64,000 nt of DNA from a virus. Every line of letters starts with the position of its first letter. The first letter of the stretch is position 1. The notes under the pieces were generated by a model. That model searched no databases. It worked only from the letters and a program-made list of their open reading frames with translations, and was not told the DNA's origin. Of the stretch, positions 4,134 to 48,525 are shown piece by piece. The position numbers and the translations under genes were made by a program. The stretch lies in IMG/VR virus record IMGVR_UViG_3300045988_115953; one strand, written 5' to 3'.

Positions 4134-4652
4134 ATGACACCTAAGGAATTTTGTAAATGGATGGCTCCTGCGGCTTATAATGCGGACATTTCGCCCGTGT
4201 TTATCATTGCTCAGGCGGCACTGGAGAGCGGATGGGGCAAGAGCGCTATCGGCAAGTATAACGTGTTTGGGATAACGAGAGGCGGGTGGCCTGTGGAGAA
4301 ATGTCTGCTTGTCACAACGCATGAGTATTTCAAGACTAAGACGGTGAGGTTCACGGCGCCGGAGAAGGTGGTGAAGATAGAACATGTGGCTGGCAAGGGT
4401 CTGTATAAGTATACTTGCAAGCGGCTGTTCAGAAACTACGCCACTCTTGGTGAGGCTCTGAGAGACCATGCTGCTGTGCTGAAGAAATCGTGGCCTGAGG
4501 CTTGGGCGTACAGGATGAGTCCTGAGAACTACGTGAAGAAGATACAGGAGGGTCGGAAGAAGTATGCGACGGCTCCGAACTACGTGGAGACGATGGGGAA
4601 GATGTTCGGGACGGTGAGAAAGGCTATGAAGGAGGCTGGACTGAGCTGCTGA
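4134..4652 (+). CDS. endolysin, N-acetylglucosaminidase type (GH73 / FlgJ-like glucosaminidase domain)
   Basis: 172 aa carrying the AQAALESGWGKS motif typical of mannosyl-glycoprotein endo-beta-N-acetylglucosaminidase domains. Followed by holin-like and spanin-like genes. Confidence 0.75.
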   Translation: MTPKEFCKWMAPAAYNADISPVFIIAQAALESGWGKSAIGKYNVFGITRGGWPVEKCLLVTTHEYFKTKTVRFTAPEKVVKIEHVAGKGLYKYTCKRLFRNYATLGEALRDHAAVLKKSWPEAWAYRMSPENYVKKIQEGRKKYATAPNYVETMGKMFGTVRKAMKEAGLSC

Positions 4653-4781: not shown

Positions 4782-5258
4782 ATGGTTAATAACTTGACTA
4801 CGGGGACGGGGAAGGCCGTCGTTTTGGGGACAATGGGAGGGGAGGCGCTGTCTGCGCTCTTCGACCTAAGATGGATGTTGGTGCTGATAGTGGTGCTGAT
4901 AGTGGCGGACTTCTGGTTCGGCGTGAGCGAGAGTCTGCATAAACATGAGCATTTCCGCTTTTCGAGAGCGGGCAGAAGAACGTGTAACAAGGCGGTGGAC
5001 TATATCACCTACCTTATATTAGGTTCGGTGCTCGGTCTTGCTATCTTCGAGCCGTTGGGATGGACGAATCATGTGGTGACGGCGGCGGTAGGACTTGGCT
5101 TTGGGTGTGTATGGGAGGTGGACTCGATCGTCGGGCATGTGTGTGAGCTGCACGGCGTGAAGAACAGATTCTCGATAAAGCGCTTCATCATAGCGCTGAT
5201 GAAGAAGAAAGACGAGGACATCGGCGAGGCTGTGGAGGAAGCGATGAAAAAAGAGTGA
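4782..5258 (+). CDS. holin-like membrane protein
   Basis: Start refined to ATG 4782 (MVNNL...). Three hydrophobic helices (LVLIVVLIVADFWFGV, YITYLILGSVLGLAIF, VVTAAVGLGFGCVW) and a charged C-terminal tail. Lies directly after the endolysin. Confidence 0.55.
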   Translation: MVNNLTTGTGKAVVLGTMGGEALSALFDLRWMLVLIVVLIVADFWFGVSESLHKHEHFRFSRAGRRTCNKAVDYITYLILGSVLGLAIFEPLGWTNHVVTAAVGLGFGCVWEVDSIVGHVCELHGVKNRFSIKRFIIALMKKKDEDIGEAVEEAMKKE

Positions 5259-9349: not shown

Positions 9350-10096
9350 CTACTCTCCGAAGTTTTCCGGTCTGTACTCCGGGTTAAGCTGCAACGCATA
9401 CTCTCCTGCGCGGTCGTAGATGCCCTCGTTAGAGAGTTTCGTTATGATATTCTTCGCTGCCTGAACGCTGTCCGCATCGTCGTTGATGTCAATATCCGGC
9501 ATCCCCGGTATCGAGTTGATTACGGACTGCACGGCGTTGTTCCAGTTGTGCTGCAAATCCAGAGCATTGCCTTTGTTGAAGTCCGGGCGCAAGTCTATTC
9601 CTATCCTCTTCTGGATATTGTCAAACAGGTTTCTGAACAGGCTTACCGCAACATCTATCAGCACCATTGCCGCCTCCATACGGGCGATGATTTTGCTCTT
9701 CGGCACATGGTTCTTCAAGAAATAGTTGTCGATGCAGTAATAGAGCGTTTTGACGAGCGGTTTGAGTTCCGCCTCCGACGCGTCAGACAGGTCAAGCCAA
9801 AGCTGATAGCGGTCTGCGAGAACAAAGCGCATCTTCGCATCCCAGGCGTTATATGCGGCAAGAGCCTTGTTGATGCTTTGCTTTGTCTTTTGACGATACA
9901 GCTTCTTGTCCTCTTTAATTGCGCCCAAAGCGTCTATCATAGCTGTCTGGGCAATATTGTACGCCGACCCCATTGTGATGTAATACAGCGAACAATAGCG
10001 GTCAATGCTCTTTAACAATTTCTCTTTCTGCTTTACGCTTGGCGCAATGACATACGGTCGTCTTGGGGTGCGGCTTATTAACTGGCTTGCGTTCAT
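9350..10096 (-). CDS. hypothetical protein
   Basis: Start refined to ATG 10096 (MNASQLISRTP), 248 aa, abuts the upstream stop. Confidence 0.5.
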   Translation of the reverse strand: MNASQLISRTPRRPYVIAPSVKQKEKLLKSIDRYCSLYYITMGSAYNIAQTAMIDALGAIKEDKKLYRQKTKQSINKALAAYNAWDAKMRFVLADRYQLWLDLSDASEAELKPLVKTLYYCIDNYFLKNHVPKSKIIARMEAAMVLIDVAVSLFRNLFDNIQKRIGIDLRPDFNKGNALDLQHNWNNAVQSVINSIPGMPDIDINDDADSVQAAKNIITKLSNEGIYDRAGEYALQLNPEYRPENFGE

Positions 10097-16807: not shown

Positions 16808-17521
16808 TTACTCAAGCGGTCCGTTTATTCCGTAGGCTTGAGGAAGCTTGCGAATTGTGGCAGAGCCGTAGCTGTTCTTGGTGAGGAGGACGAACTGGCG
16901 GACTGTGGTGGCGTCGTTGAGACTGATGCCTTTGTCTTTGCAGAAGCTCTCTCGTCCCATGCGGCACGAGCCGGTGAGAACGTGATGATAAGCGAAGAGG
17001 TCTCGGTTTGGGTAAGGGGTGTCATAGTCGGGGAATTTCTCGCGGAAAGCCTCAATTCGCTCCTCTTCGGTGCTGTTATCGTAGAGTTTTTCTTGCAGGG
17101 ACGTGAAGGCGTCATGCAGAGTGTCACCGTGGGCAAAGTGGTTCTGTTCCTTGACGATGTAGCAGGGGTGTAGGGTAAGGTCGCTATTTAGAATGAAACC
17201 TTGTGCAATGTTGTCGCGAACGGATTTTATAATCGTTGGTACGTCGTCTATTATATAGACCTTGTCACCATTCAGCACCTTTATGCCATCGCCATAGCCA
17301 TAGCCAGAGCCATCGCCATAGCCAGAGCCATAGCCATCGCCATAGCCATCGCCATAGCCATCGCCATCGCCAGAGCCATCGCCATCGCCATAGCCACAGC
17401 CATCGCCATAGCCATCGCCATAGCCATAGCCATCGCCATCGCCAGAGCCATCGCCATCGCCATAGCCACAGCCAGAGCTGACGCTCAAGAATGCTTTGAT
17501 TCGGTCTTCTAACGTCTCCAT
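16808..17521 (-). CDS. protein with ~70-aa G/D/Y/S low-complexity repeat domain
   Basis: Start refined to ATG 17521 (METLEDRIKAF). Residues ~20-90 are (GYGDGDGSGDGDGY)n-like and are encoded by a GCCATAGCCATCGCC-type microsatellite at 17281-17470. The C-terminal ~150 aa is globular. Confidence 0.6.
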   Translation of the reverse strand: METLEDRIKAFLSVSSGCGYGDGDGSGDGDGYGYGDGYGDGCGYGDGDGSGDGDGYGDGYGDGYGSGYGDGSGYGYGDGIKVLNGDKVYIIDDVPTIIKSVRDNIAQGFILNSDLTLHPCYIVKEQNHFAHGDTLHDAFTSLQEKLYDNSTEEERIEAFREKFPDYDTPYPNRDLFAYHHVLTGSCRMGRESFCKDKGISLNDATTVRQFVLLTKNSYGSATIRKLPQAYGINGPLE

Positions 17522-28088: not shown

Positions 28089-28610
28089 ATGGAGGCGACG
28101 ATTAACAACACTTCGAAATCGGCAGTTATTTCGAGAATTAACGAATTAAAAGAACACCTTGGCTATTCGCAGGCAAGGTTAGCGGAACGGTGCGGTCTTT
28201 CCAAAAGTAACTTTTGCAAGATGTTAGGCGGTAGCCAAACAATTACAGACCAAACACTACACCGACTTGCAGACGAGTTCGGTGTTAGTTTTAGATGGCT
28301 GCGCAACGGCCTTGGTGAGATGTTTGCCGAGGAGAAAGCCATCGGCAAGGCGCAGTTTGCTGCCTTCAGCCAGATGCTCGACGCGAATACAAGCCCTGTG
28401 TCGCAGAATGTCATCAGCGGCGATAACTATCAAGGCACGCAGACGATAAACGGCACAGAGGGCGAAATAGTGGCATTGAGGCAGAAAGTGGAACTGTTGA
28501 AGTGTCTGCTTGACGAGAAGGACAAATTGCTTGAGGAGAAAGACAAGCTGATAAAAGAAAAAGACAAGCAGATTGACCTTATGCGTATTCTTATCAACGA
28601 CAAGAAGTAA
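28089..28610 (+). CDS. cI-like XRE-family repressor with coiled-coil C-terminus
   Basis: Start refined to ATG 28089 (MEATINN). HTH segment LGYSQARLAERCGLSKSNFCKMLGG, and C-terminal LLDEKDKLLEEKDKLIKEKDKQ. Confidence 0.65.
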   Translation: MEATINNTSKSAVISRINELKEHLGYSQARLAERCGLSKSNFCKMLGGSQTITDQTLHRLADEFGVSFRWLRNGLGEMFAEEKAIGKAQFAAFSQMLDANTSPVSQNVISGDNYQGTQTINGTEGEIVALRQKVELLKCLLDEKDKLLEEKDKLIKEKDKQIDLMRILINDKK

Positions 28611-28908: not shown

Positions 28909-30093
28909 ATGAGGTATTTTATCAGTACTAAGGAGAGTAAAAGGAACGAGAGCGGGATGATTCCCGTATCGGTGGTGTTCCGTCACGAGGGTAGGGAGTT
29001 TGCTGCTTCAACTGGCATAGCGGTGAAGTACGCAATGAACGGCATGGTGTTCTCGGCAGAGGAGCCTAATCTGAAAGCCAAGACAAGGAGGCTTATGTGT
29101 ATCATGGACGAGGTGGATAGGTATGTCCTTGAGCACGTGGATTCGGATTATGAGCGGATGAAGGAGGATTTGCGCTGCATCGTTACGGGCAAGGACCCGA
29201 GGGAAAAGAGGTCGCTTGCAAGTTTTGTGCGTGAGTTTGCCGAACTGAAGAGTGGGAGTACAAGGAAAATATATCTCAGGACGGCGGCGTTGATTGAAGG
29301 CTATGCGCCTGAGGCGACGTTCGGTTCTGTGAACGGCTCGTGGCTTGACGGCTTCGTGCGGTCTATTGGCGAGAATGCAAGCGTGAACTATGCTGCCATC
29401 AACCTGAGGAACATACGTGCGGTGTTTAACTGGGCGATAGACAACGAATGGACATCGTGCTATCCGTTCAGACGCTACAATATAAAGTCGGAGAAGGTGG
29501 CAATCAACAATATCTCGCTGGAGCAGCTGAGGGCGGTGCGTGACTTTCCTCTTGATGACTGGCGTCGGATTTACCGGGACTTATTCATGTTGTCGTTCTA
29601 TCTGTGCGGCATCAATCCTGCGGACTTGCTGCGATTGAAGGCGTCGGATATGAAAAACGGGCGTATTCGCTACAAACGAGCGAAGACAGGGCATTTGTTT
29701 GACATTCCAGTACCGAAGCCCGCTGAGGAGATTATAAGCCGCTGGAGGGGCAGGAAATGGCTTCTATGCCCTCTTGACAACTATTCCGACTACAGGGGCT
29801 TTTATTGTCACTGGAATGCTGCTCTGAAGAAAATCGGCAGTCTGGAGCTTGCCCCTGACAAGTCGGGTGGGTTGCGCAAGAAGGTCTGGTGTCCGATTGT
29901 GGAGGGTCTGACGACGTACACGGCTCGGTATACGTTTGCGAGCATCGCCGCGGAGCTTGAGATTCCGCGTGAGACGATAGCTCTTTGTCTCGGTCATTCG
30001 TGGGCTGATGTGACGAGCCACTACATCGCCTATGACACTAAGCGCATAGATGATGCGGTGGCTCGGATTGTGGCTTACGTGGAGGGGAGCTGA
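28909..30093 (+). CDS. tyrosine recombinase / phage integrase 1
   Basis: 394 aa with a SAM-like N-domain. Catalytic region TARYTFASIAAELEIPRETIALCLGHSWADVTSHYIAY (R...HxxR-type...Y). Adjacent to attP. Confidence 0.85.
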   Translation: MRYFISTKESKRNESGMIPVSVVFRHEGREFAASTGIAVKYAMNGMVFSAEEPNLKAKTRRLMCIMDEVDRYVLEHVDSDYERMKEDLRCIVTGKDPREKRSLASFVREFAELKSGSTRKIYLRTAALIEGYAPEATFGSVNGSWLDGFVRSIGENASVNYAAINLRNIRAVFNWAIDNEWTSCYPFRRYNIKSEKVAINNISLEQLRAVRDFPLDDWRRIYRDLFMLSFYLCGINPADLLRLKASDMKNGRIRYKRAKTGHLFDIPVPKPAEEIISRWRGRKWLLCPLDNYSDYRGFYCHWNAALKKIGSLELAPDKSGGLRKKVWCPIVEGLTTYTARYTFASIAAELEIPRETIALCLGHSWADVTSHYIAYDTKRIDDAVARIVAYVEGS

Positions 30094-30755: not shown

Positions 30756-31790
30756 TTACTGGTCTTCGGGATAGTCTTTTCCGACCGCATGGAGGGCGTT
30801 CATCTCGCGTTCGGCGCGTTCTGCTCCGGGTATCTGGAAGGCTGCGAATGTCTCGGGTGAGAGTCCGATTTCTCCGACGATGTAACGCTGCGTCATGGAG
30901 ATGTTGGGGACGTTGCCTGACATGTGTCCCATGCAGAGGGCTATCTGCTCGATGGGGATGCCTTTGAGCGCGAGGTTGGTGGCGAAGGAGCGGCGACCGG
31001 TGTGTGAGGAGACGAACTCCCACTTGTGTCCTCTCTGCGTGCGTCCTGCGCGGAAGACCTTGGTGATGGTGCCTATTCCGCAGGCTCGGCAGATGTCGCG
31101 TATGTTGTCGTTGTAGCATCTGACGGAGATTTCTCTCGGCTCGGTGGGGGATACGCGTTGCAGATAGATGCGCAGCCACGGATGGATGGGGACCTTGACG
31201 ACGGTCTTGGTCTTGTGCGAGACGTACGAGATGACGCGTCCGTCCTCGCTGATGTTGTCCGGCGAGAGTGTGAGGCAGTCGGAGAGGCGTGCTCCGCACA
31301 GGCATTCGAGCATGAAGATGCGCTTGGCGTGCTTGGCTGCTTTGGTGCGTGGCGTGAACTCGTGGATGCGCCGTATCTCGTCGTCGGTGAGCGCCACGGA
31401 CTGCGACGGGACTTTCTTTGTGCGCAGGACTGTCCCGAAATTGAGTGACGGGACGGGCTTGGAGGAGTTTTCGCGTATGATGGCGTTGACTTCGGCGAAG
31501 ATGGTCTTCGCTGAGTTTGGCGCGTATGATGACGCTATCTCCTCTCGGAAGTCGCGTAGGTTGTCGTCGGTGAGGTCTTCCCACATGGGCGGGCGTCCGA
31601 CTATGCCCTTGAAGATGTTGACCACCTTTACTCGTCCCGGATGTTTCCATATCCAGGCTCCGTAGAAGGTGTGGCGCCAGGGATAGCCGTCGTATGTGGC
31701 GAAATAGCCTTGTCGGATGGCATTGGCGTACTTTTCCTGCTGTTCGGGAGTGAGCATCTCCTGCCAGCGTCTTGTCTTGAGTTGTGTCAT
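30756..31790 (-). CDS. tyrosine recombinase 2
   Basis: 344 aa. C-terminal TGRRSFATNLALKGIPIEQIALCMGHMSGNVPNISMTQRYI carries the R...HxxR-like...Y catalytic pattern. A minus-strand TACCTTTG box at 31831-31838 lies upstream. Confidence 0.8.
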   Translation of the reverse strand: MTQLKTRRWQEMLTPEQQEKYANAIRQGYFATYDGYPWRHTFYGAWIWKHPGRVKVVNIFKGIVGRPPMWEDLTDDNLRDFREEIASSYAPNSAKTIFAEVNAIIRENSSKPVPSLNFGTVLRTKKVPSQSVALTDDEIRRIHEFTPRTKAAKHAKRIFMLECLCGARLSDCLTLSPDNISEDGRVISYVSHKTKTVVKVPIHPWLRIYLQRVSPTEPREISVRCYNDNIRDICRACGIGTITKVFRAGRTQRGHKWEFVSSHTGRRSFATNLALKGIPIEQIALCMGHMSGNVPNISMTQRYIVGEIGLSPETFAAFQIPGAERAEREMNALHAVGKDYPEDQ

Positions 31791-32765: not shown

Positions 32766-33132
32766 ATCTGATGTGGTCGGCTATGCGGAGGACCTTGTGC
32801 TTGCGGTGGAGGTCGGCAATCTCGTCGCGGAGCTGTTCGATCGTGCGCTTCAATCCGGCGTTTGCGGCGTCCCTGCGCTCGATTTCGGCATGGAGGTTCT
32901 TGACGGTGTCTTGTAGCTTGCCGATGCGGTAATTGAGCATATTGTTATCGCTCTTCGCTTTTTCTGCCTGTCTTTGTAACTCGGCTTCGCCTGTATTGCT
33001 CTTTCGGAGGGTGTCGTTCTCTTTGCGAAGCATGCAGATGAGGTCGAGGAGCTTCTGATAGTTGCGTAGGATGTGGAGCATCTGATGCTCGAATGGTACG
33101 TCTTCGTTGATTTTTCTTTGTGGTCTATACAT
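32764..33132 (-). CDS. coiled-coil protein
   Basis: 122 aa with heptad-like, Q/E/K/L-rich sequence. Confidence 0.5.
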   Translation of the reverse strand: MYRPQRKINEDVPFEHQMLHILRNYQKLLDLICMLRKENDTLRKSNTGEAELQRQAEKAKSDNNMLNYRIGKLQDTVKNLHAEIERRDAANAGLKRTIEQLRDEIADLHRKHKVLRIADHIR

Positions 33133-33417
33133 ATTATAATGTCTTTAAAGTCGGTTTTTCTCTTCTTGTGTGATGGTTCCGCCTCTTGTCGGTAGGCAGT
33201 CGAGGACGATGCCTTTGTAGGACTTGGCGTGATGGGCTTCGAGGATGTCGGCTTCCGCATGATCGTCCAGCATGCACATAGCAATTCCTTACCTTGTTTC
33301 GGCTTTAAGGTCAGAACGACCCACGGATAGAGGAAGCTGTCGGCGTCTGTGATGGTATACATTTGTTAAAACTGTTAATGTTTGTGAATGGGTATTGCAT
33401 ATTGGTTTTTTAATGAC

Positions 33418-33425
33418 TACATTTG
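33418..33425 (+). promoter_or_regulatory. candidate -7 box for the repeat-mimic RNA
   Basis: TACATTTG matches the Bacteroidota TAnnTTTG motif, 18 nt before unit U1. Confidence 0.35.
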
Positions 33426-33442
33426 CAATGTCTTCGGAGGGG

Positions 33443-33504
33443 CTATTTAAATCGTACCTTTATGGAATCGCGATTTTTTAATTGTACTTTTATGGAATTG
33501 AAAT
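33443..33504 (+). CRISPR. two tandem solitary repeat units U1/U2 resembling 30-nt type I-B/III-family CRISPR repeats
   Basis: U2 (33475-33504) is TTTTTAATTGTACTTTTATGGAATTGAAAT. Compare the GTTTTAATT...TATGG...AATTGAAAT repeat family, which has an ATTGAAAT 5'-handle. U1 (33443-33474, CTATTTAAATCGTACCTTTATGGAATCGCGAT) is 23/30 identical to U2 but has a changed 3' end. There is no spacer between them. Confidence 0.5.
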
Positions 33505-33518
33505 AAAAGACACCCTCC

Positions 33519-33552
33519 GTTGACTGTCAGCCTTCGGGCTGTGGATTGAAAC
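33519..33552 (+). CRISPR. solitary type I-C-like CRISPR repeat unit (U3)
   Basis: GTTGACTGTCAGCCTTCGGGCTGTGGATTGAAAC: a 5-bp stem with a TTCG loop, followed by TGGATTGAAAC. That 11-mer is identical to the 5' handle of type I-C repeats such as GTCGCGCCCCGCACGGGCGCGTGGATTGAAAC. Confidence 0.7.
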
Positions 33553-33585
33553 GCTCACAAAGAGCTAATTTCTACTATCGTAGAT
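33553..33585 (+). CRISPR. solitary type V-A (Cas12a)-like repeat unit (U4)
   Basis: GCTCACAAAGAGCTAATTTCTACTATCGTAGAT ends in AATTTCTAC-TATC-GTAGAT. This is the canonical Cas12a crRNA handle (AAUUUCUAC-loop-GUAGAU). Confidence 0.7.
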
Positions 33586-33606
33586 TCGAGACCAATGGTC
33601 TTTCGC

Positions 33607-33631
33607 AGCCCGGCTTAGGTCGGGCTTTTTT
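33607..33631 (+). terminator. rho-independent terminator of the repeat-mimic RNA
   Basis: AGCCCG-GCTTAGGT-CGGGCT followed by TTTTTT. The T-run is on the plus strand only. Confidence 0.6.
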
Positions 33632-33788
33632 ATTTCTGATTCCTCCAAATCTCGTAATCATCCCAAGACTCAAAGCCAAGATAACCATCTACGACTGCCA
33701 CAACTTTAGAAGCCCAAGGCATCGCATCAATGGCTTTCTTCCTCCAATAGCTTGTATGTTTTTGACATTCATAAAAACCTGTTTTCAT
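33630..33788 (-). CDS. 52-aa hypothetical protein (below ORF-track cutoff)
   Basis: Hand-translated: MKTGFYECQKHTSYWRKKAIDAMPWASKVVAVVDGYLGFESWDDYEIWRNQK. Convergent with the repeat-mimic RNA. Confidence 0.4.
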   Translation of the reverse strand: MKTGFYECQKHTSYWRKKAIDAMPWASKVVAVVDGYLGFESWDDYEIWRNQK

Positions 33789-34261: not shown

Positions 34262-34335
34262 ATAATCCCGCTTGCCGTGTTGCGGTAGGGCTTGGTTAAT
34301 GGTGCCAGGGCGAGCCTGGCGGTTTTAGGCGGGGA

Positions 34336-36229: not shown

Positions 36230-37495
36230 TTAGAGGTTGGCTACGAGGGTGTCGTAGGCGGCTTTGCTGGTAAGCAGGGCCTTGCGTGCGCAGCCTAATG
36301 TGAGATAGCCGGTGATGATGGGGGCGGTCTTGCTGCGGTTGGCGGTGACGTTTCGTCCTCGTCCCCGCTGTATGCAGCCGACCTGCTGATTCTTGACGAA
36401 CCCTATGCCTCCTATCTTTCGCTTGCCCGTCTTGACGGCTCGGAGGCAGTCCATGACGAACGTGTTGAGCGTATAGACGTCCTCTTCGGCGTTGATGATG
36501 GGCAGGACCTGCGTGGACCATGAATGTCCTTCGTACCCCTTGTAGAGATAGCGGTTGACGGAGTTTATGGCTTTTTGCAGGGTGACGTCACGCTTCTTGA
36601 CTGTGCGCTTCTCGATTTCCTTCTGGAATGTCTTGATGCGCGTGGACGAGAGCGAGATGCTGCTGCCCTTGATGGAGAATCCGAGGAACTTGAACCAATG
36701 GTCAGCGTCGAGGAATTCTACCTTCTTGGGATTGAGCTTCATCTGCATCTTCGCCAGCTCCTCCTCCATGATGCGCTTGGCTTCCTGCCAGTCCTCGCCC
36801 ACGAAGATGGCGTCGTCCGAATAACGGCAGTAGACGCCGCGCAGACGGGACAGGCGCTCGTCAATGTGATAGAGGACCACGTCGGCAAGCCATGAGGCTA
36901 CGCTGCATCCCTGCTTGAGCGACTGGTATCTCTCGGAGAGAGTGCCGTCGGTATCGAAATAGAGATTGCAGTGGTAGTAAGCGCGTAGGACGTCTATCAG
37001 AGCGGAATGACCGTGACGAAGCTCTACCTGATCGAACGCCCAGTCGATGTACGACAGGAGCACCGTATCGAAATACTTGGACAGGTCGGACTTGAAGCCT
37101 CCGATGCGTCCTTTCGCGAAGGATATATGTCGGGATATGTTCTGTACGACGCGTCCGCATCCGATGCCCTTCTGATATGATGTGCAGCAGGGATGGACCA
37201 TTTCGGGTGTCAGCTCGAAGAGGAGGTCGTTGGCAATGGAGAGGAGTATGCGGTCGGCAGGCTCGTTGATGTAGACGGTGCGGAATTCTCCGTTGTCCTT
37301 CGGTATGAGAGCCGTGTGAGGTGGCATTATCCTGTACTTGCCGTCGCGTATCTTCTGATACATCAAGGCACGTGCCTCGGGTGTGGTGAGCTGATAGAGC
37401 GTGGCTTTGTTGATGTCCTTGTCGAGTCCTTTCTGTATGGCGTACTGCCAACGCTCGGACTGGAAGGCCATCTGTAAGATTTTGTCTTCTTTCAT
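36230..37495 (-). CDS. reverse transcriptase (orphan; class not assignable by eye)
   Basis: 421 aa with RT motifs: IPKDNGEFRTV (1), ADRILLSIANDLL (2), GFKSDLSKYFDTV (3/A), LKQGCSVASWLADVVL (4/B), YCRYSDDAIFVG (5/C, YxDD), LNPKKVEFL (6), FKFLGFSI (7). Has a ~135-aa C-terminal extension. Confidence 0.85.
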   Translation of the reverse strand: MKEDKILQMAFQSERWQYAIQKGLDKDINKATLYQLTTPEARALMYQKIRDGKYRIMPPHTALIPKDNGEFRTVYINEPADRILLSIANDLLFELTPEMVHPCCTSYQKGIGCGRVVQNISRHISFAKGRIGGFKSDLSKYFDTVLLSYIDWAFDQVELRHGHSALIDVLRAYYHCNLYFDTDGTLSERYQSLKQGCSVASWLADVVLYHIDERLSRLRGVYCRYSDDAIFVGEDWQEAKRIMEEELAKMQMKLNPKKVEFLDADHWFKFLGFSIKGSSISLSSTRIKTFQKEIEKRTVKKRDVTLQKAINSVNRYLYKGYEGHSWSTQVLPIINAEEDVYTLNTFVMDCLRAVKTGKRKIGGIGFVKNQQVGCIQRGRGRNVTANRSKTAPIITGYLTLGCARKALLTSKAAYDTLVANL

Positions 37496-46192: not shown

Positions 46193-46248
46193 AATAATTC
46201 TGTTTTGGTTAATAGACCCCACAATCGTGGGGATTTTTAGGCTGTGGC

Positions 46249-46542
46249 TTACTTGCCGGCTTTCTCGTTCACGTAGGCTACAAGACGCTCGAACTTTGCG
46301 TCGTTTTCTTCTGTGCTGTAGAACGGATTGAATGAGAAATACTCATTGTAAGTGAGGGAATCTACGCCTTTTTTGTCCTTATTGTAGCCAACGCAAACGC
46401 CGATTTGGGCAGATATGCAGGGATCTACCACAATAGATATGCCCAGATGCTTGTCAAAAAATGTTCTTCTCTGCATCTCCTGTATTTTTGGGAGGATTAC
46501 TTTGGCTATCCTCTCAGACTCTGTAAGCTTTTTCTTTTCCAT
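46249..46542 (-). CDS. hypothetical protein
   Basis: Start refined to ATG 46542 (MEKKKLTESERIAK). Confidence 0.5.
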   Translation of the reverse strand: MEKKKLTESERIAKVILPKIQEMQRRTFFDKHLGISIVVDPCISAQIGVCVGYNKDKKGVDSLTYNEYFSFNPFYSTEENDAKFERLVAYVNEKAGK

Positions 46543-46606
46543 AATTCTAATTTTATTGGTTGTCTTGAGCCGTGACACGCACAATAATAGTGCTGCCACG
46601 GCATTT

Positions 46607-46741
46607 TCAGGCGATGAAGGCTACAGTGAGGAATTTTCCGTCATAACCAAGAAATTCAACGTGTGTATACATTTCCTGCATCTTTGCGAAAACTCTTTCC
46701 ATAAACACAGCACCTTTGCACTCAATTCTTCTTGTACTCAT
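46607..46741 (-). CDS. 44-aa hypothetical protein (below ORF-track cutoff)
   Basis: Hand-translated: MSTRRIECKGAVFMERVFAKMQEMYTHVEFLGYDGKFLTVAFIA. Has canonical cassette boundaries on both sides. Confidence 0.4.
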   Translation of the reverse strand: MSTRRIECKGAVFMERVFAKMQEMYTHVEFLGYDGKFLTVAFIA

Positions 46742-46771
46742 AATTCTGTAATTTTATTTGGTTAACTGGAA

Positions 46772-46789
46772 GGTAGCCAAACGGCTACC
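46772..46789. repeat. cassette-boundary hairpin GGTAGCC-AAAC-GGCTACC
   Basis: Exact reverse complement of the hairpin at 48045-48062 (GGTAGCC-GTTT-GGCTACC), inside otherwise co-oriented flanks (CTGGAA...CCCTTTT). Confidence 0.6.
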
Positions 46790-46798
46790 CTTTTTAGA

Positions 46799-47707: not shown

Positions 47708-47992
47708 TAATTATCGTACTACCCCAAAACAGGGTAGCAATTAAGGCTCAATACTTTCCAAGCACAATTTTCGTACTGCTCAGGATTCTGAACTCGGCTT
47801 GAGGAGGATCTTTTCCAAGCGCTCATTCTCACGCACGAAATTCTTGAAGAATCCGTTGCCAATTTTCGTACTGCTCCAGAAATAGAGCAGAAACAACATG
47901 TAAAGGATTCCAAGCACACTGATTATCGTACTGCTTAAAATAAGCAGACACGGAACAAGCTGAAGGTTTCCAAGCACAATTATCGTACTGCT
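47708..47992. repeat. iteron-like direct repeats CCAAGCACAATTATCGTACTGCT (4 good copies + partials, ~57-bp spacing)
   Basis: Copies at 47758-47780, 47859-47875 (3' half), 47910-47935 and 47970-47992. Partials at ~47708-47722 and ~47815. Confidence 0.6.
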
Positions 47993-48016
47993 ACGTAAAA
48001 TCTGTCTCTTTGTCAT
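47780..48016 (-). CDS. small hydrophobic protein built over a DNA tandem repeat
   Basis: 78 aa with the reiterated peptide SSTII(S)VLG(N/I)L. The underlying 23-nt DNA repeat continues past the stop in another frame. Confidence 0.4.
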   Translation of the reverse strand: MTKRQILRSSTIIVLGNLQLVPCLLILSSTIISVLGILYMLFLLYFWSSTKIGNGFFKNFVRENERLEKILLKPSSES

Positions 48017-48075
48017 AATTCTGAATTTTAATGGTTTACTGGAAGGTAGCCGTTTGGCTACCCTTTTGAGGCGGA

Positions 48076-48255
48076 TTAGAAATACCTGTCACGCAGGTAT
48101 AACACATAGTTCTTGAATCTACTTATATATGGGTCACGGGCTGCAAAACAATGGTTAGCAAAATCCGCACGTGTCAAAAATCCCATGTTGTAGACTTCAA
48201 TGGCGTGCTCAATCTCTGAGTACATAGCCCATAAATTTACATTCGTTGTTTCCAT
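48076..48255 (-). CDS. small hypothetical protein
   Basis: Start refined to ATG 48255 (METTNVNLWAMY), 59 aa. Confidence 0.45.
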   Translation of the reverse strand: METTNVNLWAMYSEIEHAIEVYNMGFLTRADFANHCFAARDPYISRFKNYVLYLRDRYF

Positions 48256-48280
48256 AATTCTTTTAGGTTTGGTTTGTAGA

Positions 48281-48296
48281 CCCCACAATCGTGGGG
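48281..48296. repeat. cassette-boundary hairpin CCCCAC-AATC-GTGGGG
   Basis: The 24-nt block AGACCCCACAATCGTGGGGATTTT is repeated identically at ~46214-46237. Confidence 0.6.
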
Positions 48297-48303
48297 ATTT
48301 TTC

Positions 48304-48525
48304 TTAGGCTATACGGAGAGGTTTCGCGTACGTTCTGCATACATCAAACGCAGGATGCTCAGGCGTACGCTCTGACGTGTCGAATAATCGTACTTCCACA
48401 TATCCCATGTCCCTGGCATCTGTGAAATAATTCCAAGCGTCATGGAAATTGTCAAAACCCATGTAATGTACGTGCGGATGCTCACCGTATGTGACACAAT
48501 AGCTCTCTTTGTAATATTTGCTCAT
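48304..48525 (-). CDS. hypothetical protein (first gene of the minus-strand cassette array)
   Basis: 73-aa ORF with an AGAATTATG context. Confidence 0.5.
   Translation of the reverse strand: MSKYYKESYCVTYGEHPHVHYMGFDNFHDAWNYFTDARDMGYVEVRLFDTSERTPEHPAFDVCRTYAKPLRIA

Follow-up and report, generated by a model that had tools for sequence, protein, structure and literature searches.

In this work, we analysed a window of 64,000 nucleotides (nt) of the IMG/VR virus record IMGVR_UViG_3300045988_115953 and focused on an element of its plus strand (33418-33632) in which look-alikes of the repeats of CRISPR systems of types I-B, I-C and V-A follow one another. We propose, with a probability of about two in three, that this locus is a phage gene for one structured small RNA acting as a multivalent RNA anti-CRISPR, i.e. 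a decoy of the Racr (RNA anti-CRISPR) type. Such a multivalent decoy had been suggested in an initial annotation of the same DNA, and it is now supported by matches to repeats of known cas context, by recurrence of the composite, by covariation and by spacer targeting. The locus shows the pattern of an RNA selected for its fold, with a fast turnover of its modules. The feature itself is real, widespread and selected; its function we infer.

Organisation of the element

The element fills a 267-nt gap flanked by open reading frames (ORFs) of the minus strand and is thus antisense to its neighbours. Its features are the following:

33418-33632, plus strand: stand-alone RNA unit of 215 nt, from box to terminator, as read from the sequence
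33394-33425, plus strand: predicted Bacteroidetes-type promoter, with a weak -33-like ATTG (33394-33397), a 20-nt spacer and a -7 box
33418-33425, plus strand: -7 box TACATTTG, as read from the sequence
33430-33441, plus strand: closing stem P0, 5' strand (GTC-TT-CGGAGGG), GTCTTCGGAGGG, pairing with 33513-33524
33445-33474, plus strand: U1, degenerate I-B repeat mimic ATTTAAATCGTACCTTTATGGAATCGCGAT, best 30-nt register, 3' handle spoiled
33475-33504, plus strand: U2, I-B (PGING-variant) repeat mimic TTTTTAATTGTACTTTTATGGAATTGAAAT, with an intact ATTGAAAT handle
33513-33524, plus strand: closing stem P0, 3' strand (CCCTCCG-TT-GAC), CCCTCCGTTGAC, pairing with 33430-33441
33526-33552, plus strand: I-C repeat mimic GTCAGCCTTCGGGCTGTGGATTGAAAC, made of GT, a stem of 5 base pairs (bp), a UUCG loop and an 11-nt handle
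33553-33585, plus strand: V-A (Cas12a) repeat mimic GCTCACAAAGAGCTAATTTCTACTATCGTAGAT, made of the mini-hairpin P2 and a handle
33586-33606, plus strand: tail hairpin P4, GAGACC (33588-33593) with GGTCTT (33597-33602)
33607-33632, plus strand: intrinsic terminator, stem 33607-33626 of 8 bp including 6 G-C pairs, then a T run

The promoter box, the tandem of four units and the terminator had all been correctly described in the initial annotation, from which the long-range stem P0 was absent. This stem encloses U1 and U2, a short A-rich linker lying between U2 and its 3' strand. The limits first given for U2 and for the V-A unit were retained, and those of the two other units were shifted: the best register of U1 starts at 33445 rather than 33443, and the I-C unit starts at 33526 rather than 33519. 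As had been stated, no spacers separate the units, U1 and U2 being abutted and the remaining units lying 0-21 nt apart; the organisation of a CRISPR array or mini-array (like repeats with 25-40-nt spacers) is therefore not found here. In line with the statement that no unit has a second copy, each motif is present once in the 64 kb; U1 and U2 form a direct repeat (87 % over 23 nt). In a search for arrays over the whole window, the motifs were single-copy and the tandem-repeat scan gave nothing array-like. The reported lack of cas genes agrees with our non-exhaustive screen of about 30 ORFs of the window, among which none was found.

Transcription presumably starts at the predicted promoter, whose TAnnTTTG box is located at an equal upstream distance in those relatives whose upstream flank was displayed, and also occurs in the leaders of true host I-B arrays. 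A sigma-70 scan of the promoter region gave no match, as expected for Bacteroidetes. A strong terminator was predicted on the plus strand only. At the locus, Rfam (gathering thresholds, and E-values up to 10) returned no CRISPR-DR or other family, just terminator-driven noise, and the GenBank phage collection, searched in near and distant modes, gave no match to the locus or to the surrounding 20 kb.

Repeat units and their counterparts in host CRISPR loci

U1 and U2 match a 30-nt repeat family, GTTTTAAT(C/T)GTACCTTTATGGAATTGAAAT, whose consensus (up to 3 mismatches) matches the 64 kb once, against 0.00 matches expected. U2 is identical to the true-array repeat GTTTTAATTGTACCTTTATGGAATTGAAAT at 28 of 30 positions (29 of 30 for its counterpart in the relatives L032, L035 and L038, the L numbers designating loci retrieved in this work). 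U1, which is restricted to the close lineage of the window and to L178, is identical to the true-array repeat GTTTTAATCGTACCTTTATGGAATTGAAAT at 25 of 30 positions. At least 120 loci were retrieved when metagenome contigs were scanned with the U2 core, and the matches listed were mostly true arrays, of up to 120 repeats, with GTTTTAATCGTACCTTTATGGAATTGAAAT or GTTTTAATTGTACCTTTATGGAATTGAAAT as consensus. Arrays of this family, whose 30-nt repeat ends in ATTGAAAT/C, adjoin cas6-cas5p-cas8c/csp2-cas7/csp1-cas3-cas4-cas1b, an operon labelled 'type I-PGING' in NCBIfam and whose Cas1 is Cas1b; some of them come after a variant of this operon, in which the large subunit and the Cas7 subunit are divergent. 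The family of U2 is typed I-B in the accessible part of the solitary repeat unit (SRU) tables of the Racr paper (PMC10651486). Where U2 was first likened to I-B/III repeats, its match is to the repeat of I-B (PGING-variant) arrays.

Three further observations concern loci with I-B-type repeats. In one family of host I-B leaders (110 nt upstream of repeat 1; L167, L168, L172, L186, L190, L210 and L249), GTCTTCGGGG is located 24-32 nt before repeat 1, and the same leader family has the -7 box of the phage element (TATCTTTGCACC). In L170, L191, L192, L199 and L221, 6 nt separate the last repeat of a true I-C array from a repeat of I-B type, which precedes a 35-nt spacer and a degenerate I-B repeat; I-C and I-B repeats are thus natural neighbours in some gut bacteria. 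Finally, true arrays of the 30-nt repeat are present, together with divergent cas7- and cas8-like genes, on a 237-kb contig classified as viral, IMGVR_UViG_3300045988_163480 (L036, L037, L039); this contig is host DNA or else a very large phage equipped with an I-B-like system of its own.

In the I-C unit, the stem CAGCC/GGCTG (33528-33532 with 33537-33541) is capped by a UUCG loop and followed by the 11-nt handle TGGATTGAAAC (33542-33552). The same layout (GT, a stem-loop closed by C...G, an identical 11-nt tag) is that of the true I-C repeat GTCGCACCCTACGTGGGTGCGTGGATTGAAAC of the gut contig L192, 58 copies of which adjoin cas3-cas5c-cas8c-cas7c-cas4-cas1c; the I-C handle recognised at first is therefore carried by a unit with the hairpin layout and the tag of a verified I-C locus. 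More generally, the unit has the GTC... start, the G+C-rich hairpin and the 11-nt 3' tag UGGAUUGAAAC of the arrays located next to cas5c, cas8c and cas7c. Taken alone, the 12-nt I-C handle is weak evidence (1 match in 64 kb, 0.29 expected), yet it is adjacent to the other units. In L110, L177, L194, L202 and L281-L318, the handle is mostly noncanonical (GTGGATTTAAAC, GTGGATTCAAAC, GTAAATTCAAAC) and the hairpin is retained; a deliberate defect, decay, or mimicry of an I-C repeat variant not yet seen may account for this.

In the V-A unit, P2 (GCTC 33553-33556 with GAGC 33562-33565) precedes the handle AATTTCTACTATCGTAGAT (33567-33585), whose pattern matches the 64 kb once (0.00 expected). The last 20 nt of the unit are identical, 20 out of 20, to the repeat GTCTATAAGGACTTGATAATTTCTACTATCGTAGAT of a Prevotella metagenome-assembled genome (MAG), L043, in which this repeat is present 36 times and adjoins cas12a-cas4-cas1. 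The Cas12a handle of the initial annotation is thus shared with a verified cas12a array. GTDB genomes scanned with AATTTCTACTATYGTAGAT yielded at least 120 loci, and about 70 of the matches listed are true 36-nt V-A arrays, many of them in Bacteroidales. The unit displays AAUUUCUAC, the 4-5-nt loop and the 3'-terminal GUAGAU of the arrays found next to cas12a. True V-A repeats start with a hairpin more often than expected (at least 4 bp at the 5' end in 23 of 60 repeats, 6.4 expected), which indicates that the V-A unit copies the whole repeat layout, beyond the handle. In sequence and fold, the likeness expected of Racrs to real CRISPR repeats thus extends beyond short handles (28/30 for U2; 20/20 nt plus the 5' hairpin for the V-A unit; stem-loop plus 11-nt handle for the I-C unit).

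Conservation of the RNA fold

The 215-nt RNA has a folding z-score of -5.4 relative to shuffled sequences, and five hairpins are maintained by compensatory changes. In an alignment of 21 members, 97.1 % of the cells pair, against 31-44 % when the partners are slid, and compensatory changes affect 9 pairs (41 cells); the covariation score is 0.187, which none of 500 shuffles reached (0.100 in shuffles). For P0, RNAalifold and pair counts on the 21 relatives gave 9 pairs, with 98-100 % of cells paired and a compensatory change in one pair. P2 covaries (GCTC/GAGC, GAGC/GCTC, GTTC/GAAC and GAACT/AGTTC; at least 6 stems across variants), the I-C stem exists in at least 9 different sequences with compensatory changes in 4 pairs, and P4, for which at least 12 stem sequences exist, folds in 23 of 29 tail variants. 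As the MAFFT alignment misplaces the inner pairs of this hairpin, only the outer 4 pairs were counted formally, the remainder being taken from per-sequence folds. Together, the compensatory changes and the many different stem sequences argue for selection on the RNA.

Recurrence and module turnover

The element is present in related phages, and its composite recurs, with structure-preserving covariation, in at least 110 loci of viral, metagenomic or genomic origin. A search pattern in which the I-C and V-A handles are joined was found in 34 IMG/VR contigs, the closing stem around an I-B unit in 39 further ones, and the U2 pattern in the close relatives of the window, i.e. 4 more IMG/VR contigs. 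About 20 human-gut metagenome contigs also harbour the composite, as do 2 genome contigs, one of which is the chromosome of Segatella copri HDE04 (NZ_CP152346.1; L110), where the locus, with a ParA-like gene and ORFans as neighbours, is not demonstrable as a prophage. The I-B, I-C and V-A modules occur in that order in 31 of the 38 new viral loci, the other 7 having no recognisable I-C handle (5 loci), no V-A handle (1 locus) or neither (1 locus). A second family has no I-B unit, its I-C unit being directly after the promoter. Modules also differ among relatives that are 93-98 % identical to the window over 21.6-33.6 kb: the V-A unit is missing in L035 and L214, and an altered handle loop with no P4 is found in L038 and L271. 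The I-C unit is missing in L272 and L293. Modules are thus acquired, lost or degraded from one close relative to the next, which we read as the mark of an arms race.

Degraded copies exist as well (I-C unit lost in L303 and L316, V-A handle truncated in L292, point mutation in L306), as would be the case if the locus were a relic, now in decay, of host array ends that had been captured, or else a small RNA with another role that borrows Cas RNases for its processing, with no anti-CRISPR effect. The 5' strand of the closing stem, moreover, resembles the host I-B leader and may descend from it, which suggests capture from a host array. We nevertheless regard this explanation as quite improbable: three repeat types from three separate host loci are joined in a constant order in dozens of phages that have diverged, the element has its own promoter and terminator, its compensatory changes reveal selection on the RNA, and host spacers (see below) show that I-B, I-C and V-A systems attack the phage.

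One locus, L260 (5990-7650), has a different continuation. The flank of phage type, the promoter and the first I-B unit (GTCTTCGGAGGC + TTTTTAATCGTACC...) lead there straight to an I-B array with about 25 repeats in three variants, and there is no continuation into closing stem, I-C or V-A modules; the locus may be a phage-borne array, a mis-assembly or a prophage that recombined into a host array. Such a junction speaks for units that are recombination or attachment sites rather than RNA decoys, used for integration into host CRISPR arrays, for exchange with them or for seeding a phage-borne array, and the Racr paper mentions sequences resembling repeats through which prophages integrate into CRISPR arrays (PMC10651486). 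It is, however, the only one among more than 110 loci, and the element is internal in the window, with phage genes on both sides and integrase genes 1.6 and 3.3 kb away. Moreover, a DNA site would leave unexplained the promoter, the terminator and the covarying RNA hairpins, as well as the spacer-less fusion of I-C and V-A units. This alternative is therefore, in our view, very improbable.

The 3' tail and the sequences following the handles

It had been suggested that the tail following the V-A unit could act as a Cas12a spacer. This is not supported, the tail being a covarying hairpin without a target flanked by a protospacer-adjacent motif (PAM) in the host loci sampled. When compared with 800 kb of V-A host loci, the tail of the window gave no TTTV PAM and no match extension above 10 nt, and the 9-nt seeds of 28 tails matched these loci, which are a sample only, at chance level. 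Chance level was also obtained for the stretches that follow the I-B and I-C handles, searched in a sample of 650 kb of I-B and 62 kb of I-C host loci.

In a sister subfamily (L003, L005, L011, L017, L022, L025), a spacer-like stretch of 20 nt lies between two I-C units, the V-A unit is short and lacks P2, and the 24-nt tail that precedes the terminator is unstructured; this layout recalls the Cracrs, which are viral crRNA-like genes. Its tail has an 18-nt match at L073:816-833, about 400 nt from a V-A array of a Bacteroidales MAG, without a TTTV PAM.

These searches bear on a regulatory explanation, in which the locus would be a mimic of the Cracr type: a unit and the sequence that follows it (e.g. 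the 21-nt V-A tail) would form a short guide by which host Cas proteins are directed to a cas or toxin promoter and repress it. Cracrs require a guide that resembles a spacer and matches a cas or creT promoter, their arrays 'always target ... the same type', and they were reported from Pseudomonadota, Bacillota and Actinomycetota, not from Bacteroidota (Liu et al., bioRxiv 10.1101/2024.10.29.618823). The present element shares with them its own promoter and terminator and the presence of several units on one transcript, and its single V-A repeat followed by about 20 nt and a terminator has the layout of CracrVA1; within the sister subfamily, L003, L005, L011, L022 and L025 add the spacer-like 20 nt, the unstructured tail and the 18-nt match in L073. 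In the family of the window, by contrast, the tail is a hairpin kept by compensatory changes, without conservation of its sequence, and it lies at a variable distance (0-9 nt) from the V-A handle, which does not fit a seed in a fixed register. In addition, the seed searches stayed at chance and no promoter-matching guide was found in the few host loci sampled, and the window locus mixes I-B, I-C and V-A units whereas published Cracr arrays are of one subtype only. We thus consider a Cracr-type function unlikely in the family of the window, whereas the sister subfamily of L003 may have one.

Host CRISPR spacers matching the phage

Spacers (3332 in total) were extracted from the arrays retrieved here and compared with the window, with the following matches:

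4548-4584, minus strand: I-B protospacer, 37/37, spacer of the true I-B array L182, CCA PAM
48462-48496: I-B protospacer, 35/35
5055-5089: I-B protospacer, 34/35
16860-16894: I-B protospacer, 34/35
28373-28405: I-B protospacer, 31/33
34268-34292: I-B protospacer, 25/25 in the window and 32/32 in L032
4752-4778: I-B protospacer, 25/27
9765-9799: weak I-C spacer match, 31/35, spacer from L191, noncanonical TTG flank

At least 6 I-B spacers from at least 5 arrays match the window and, at the 6 I-B matches readable to the spacer start, the PAM is CCA (five times) or CCG (once). As for type V-A, a spacer of the Prevotella MAG L043 matches the relative L032, which is 97 % identical to the window, at 30 of 31 positions, directly after a TTTA PAM. 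No match of at least 25 nt was obtained with the reversed window used as control, against 11 with the real one. The three CRISPR types that are mimicked are thus those holding memories of this phage lineage. Hosts with CRISPR-Cas systems of the cognate types are therefore documented, the evidence for each type coming from separate loci (I-B arrays, L191 and L043).

Proposed function

Cas6f binds and cuts RacrIF1, which nucleates a dead-end filament of Cas7f, and experiments have shown that I-C and V-A systems are inhibited by RacrIC1 and RacrVA1-3 (Camara-Wilpert et al. 2023, PMC10651486). By analogy, the element would produce, from its own Bacteroidetes-type promoter to its own terminator, an RNA presenting without spacers one intact and one crippled I-B repeat looped by the closing stem, then a minimal I-C repeat (hairpin and 11-nt handle), then a full V-A repeat (5' mini-hairpin and Cas12a handle), behind which a blocking hairpin and the terminator are located. 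Cas6 (I-B), Cas5c (I-C) and Cas12a (V-A) would each bind, and probably cut, their cognate module. The RNA found after the handle would be the closing stem for I-B, P2 for I-C, and P4 with the terminator for V-A; since this flanking RNA is short or hairpin-locked, the products would have no usable guide. Such decoy products would compete with real CRISPR RNAs (crRNAs) and tie up Cas subunits in dead-end complexes, so that one transcript would lower the immunity conferred by all three systems. Protection would concern the infecting phage and also the prophage in lysogens with matching spacers; the location of the element near integrase genes, among small ORFs, suggests that it may shield the prophage from self-targeting spacers.

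A more specific version of this proposal, to which we would give even odds, is that a single tri-specific decoy of about 200 nt disables I-B, I-C and V-A systems in Segatella/Prevotella, its modules being swapped, lost or degraded along with host CRISPR repertoires. It would include two accessory structures without described counterpart, i.e. the stem closing the I-B units and the hairpin blocking the Cas12a guide position, and it may derive from, and still recombine with, the leaders of host arrays (L260).

Several points weigh against the decoy function. Transcription of the locus, and Cas binding and inhibition by its RNA, are predictions, and the roles given to the closing stem and to P4 are guesses. 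The I-C mimic is 27 nt long versus 32 nt in real repeats, and its handle is noncanonical in most relatives (ATTTAAAC, ATTCAAAC), which makes Cas5c competence uncertain. No experimental test of an I-B Racr was found in the literature searched. None of the neighbouring proteins resembles a solved anti-CRISPR protein (Acr), and the usual acr-racr linkage is not seen. Lastly, the identity of the host rests on one S. copri locus, a spacer of a Prevotella MAG and the promoter type.

Comparison with known systems

Like Racrs, the element consists of phage-encoded repeat look-alikes, located outside arrays and without cas genes, that match host CRISPR types; it also has their mobile-element setting, with phage genes present, single-copy units and no cas gene among the ORFs screened. 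Racrs were defined as solitary units and matches associated with other repeats were filtered out (PMC10651486). Here, four contiguous units of three types are found, which is the point of difference: a single structured transcript unites three subtypes and has, in addition, a closing stem and a blocking hairpin. The accessible SRU candidates of that paper include I-B units sharing 28-29 nt with relatives of the window (e.g. TTTTAATCGTACCTTTATGGAATTGAAA, CTTTTAATCGTACCATTATGGAATTGAAA), and these identical strings indicate that the I-B modules of the relatives are very likely already among the candidates. The composite is not mentioned in the Racr paper, and its IMG/VR contigs were not found in the accessible part of the SRU tables, which are based on an older IMG/VR release. 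A search for whole-repeat identity would probably miss the I-C and V-A units, whose likeness lies mainly in handle and fold. More widely, searches that require near-full-length identity, or that discard matches located beside other repeats, probably under-count such elements. The literature searched contains no description of an RNA mimicking repeats of mixed types. What appears to be novel is therefore the mimicry of three subtypes in one RNA, Racrs themselves being known.

Host arrays of Prevotella/Segatella and other Bacteroidales (I-B/PGING, I-C and V-A) would be the source of the mimicked sequences, and the -7 box is shared with I-B leaders. In contrast to these arrays, the element has no spacers and no cas genes, its units are single (or in 1.5 copies), its three types are adjacent and its setting is that of a phage. 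Anti-CRISPR protein operons combine inhibitors of several CRISPR types. They are likewise one compact phage locus directed against several types, but are made of protein genes, whereas the element is one RNA of about 200 nt. If our proposal is right, phages would solve the multi-CRISPR problem with one tiny gene, covering both CRISPR classes in 200 nt. This would help to explain the persistence of temperate phages, despite matching spacers, in Segatella/Prevotella, which are among the most abundant human gut bacteria, and would offer a ready-made modular design to switch off Cas12a and type I tools together.

The phage genome around the element

The window encodes a portal protein, a primase, an anti-repressor, two integrase-family proteins, a YqaJ recombinase and a methylase and is, judging from this gene content, temperate-phage or mobile-element DNA; the phage is probably a temperate gut phage of Prevotella/Segatella. 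Its integrase genes (28909-30093, plus strand; 30756-31790, minus strand) are located 3.3 kb and 1.6 kb from the element, respectively. For the four proteins encoded on its flanks, no PDB relative and no informative Pfam or PHROG match was found. A 170-aa ORF (32850-33362, minus strand), which overlaps in another frame a 122-aa coiled-coil ORF and a 44-aa ORF, has a low-complexity product and is thus unlikely to be a gene; a second TACATTTG box, at 33358, is overlapped by its ATG.

At 36230-37495 on the minus strand, 2.6 kb from the element, a gene encodes a reverse transcriptase (RVT_1, E = 3.6e-17), and homologous regions are found close to the element in L032, L008 and L233. The reverse transcriptase gene was not retained as part of a diversity-generating retroelement, no pair of template and variable repeats being found within the 64 kb. 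A tRNA-like Rfam match (26805-26868, minus strand, 37.1 bits), not called by ARAGORN, is situated 2-4 kb from the two integrase-family genes and may be an attachment site or a boundary of the mobile element; both of its sides look mobile, as spacers match on both of them. Lastly, repeated sequences were observed at two other places of the window, i.e. a 12/24-nt tandem repeat (16 and 8 copies) within an ORF at 17285-17478, and a 60-nt repeat of 2.3 copies at 47860-47992, with further partial copies at 46194-46797 and 48013-48302.

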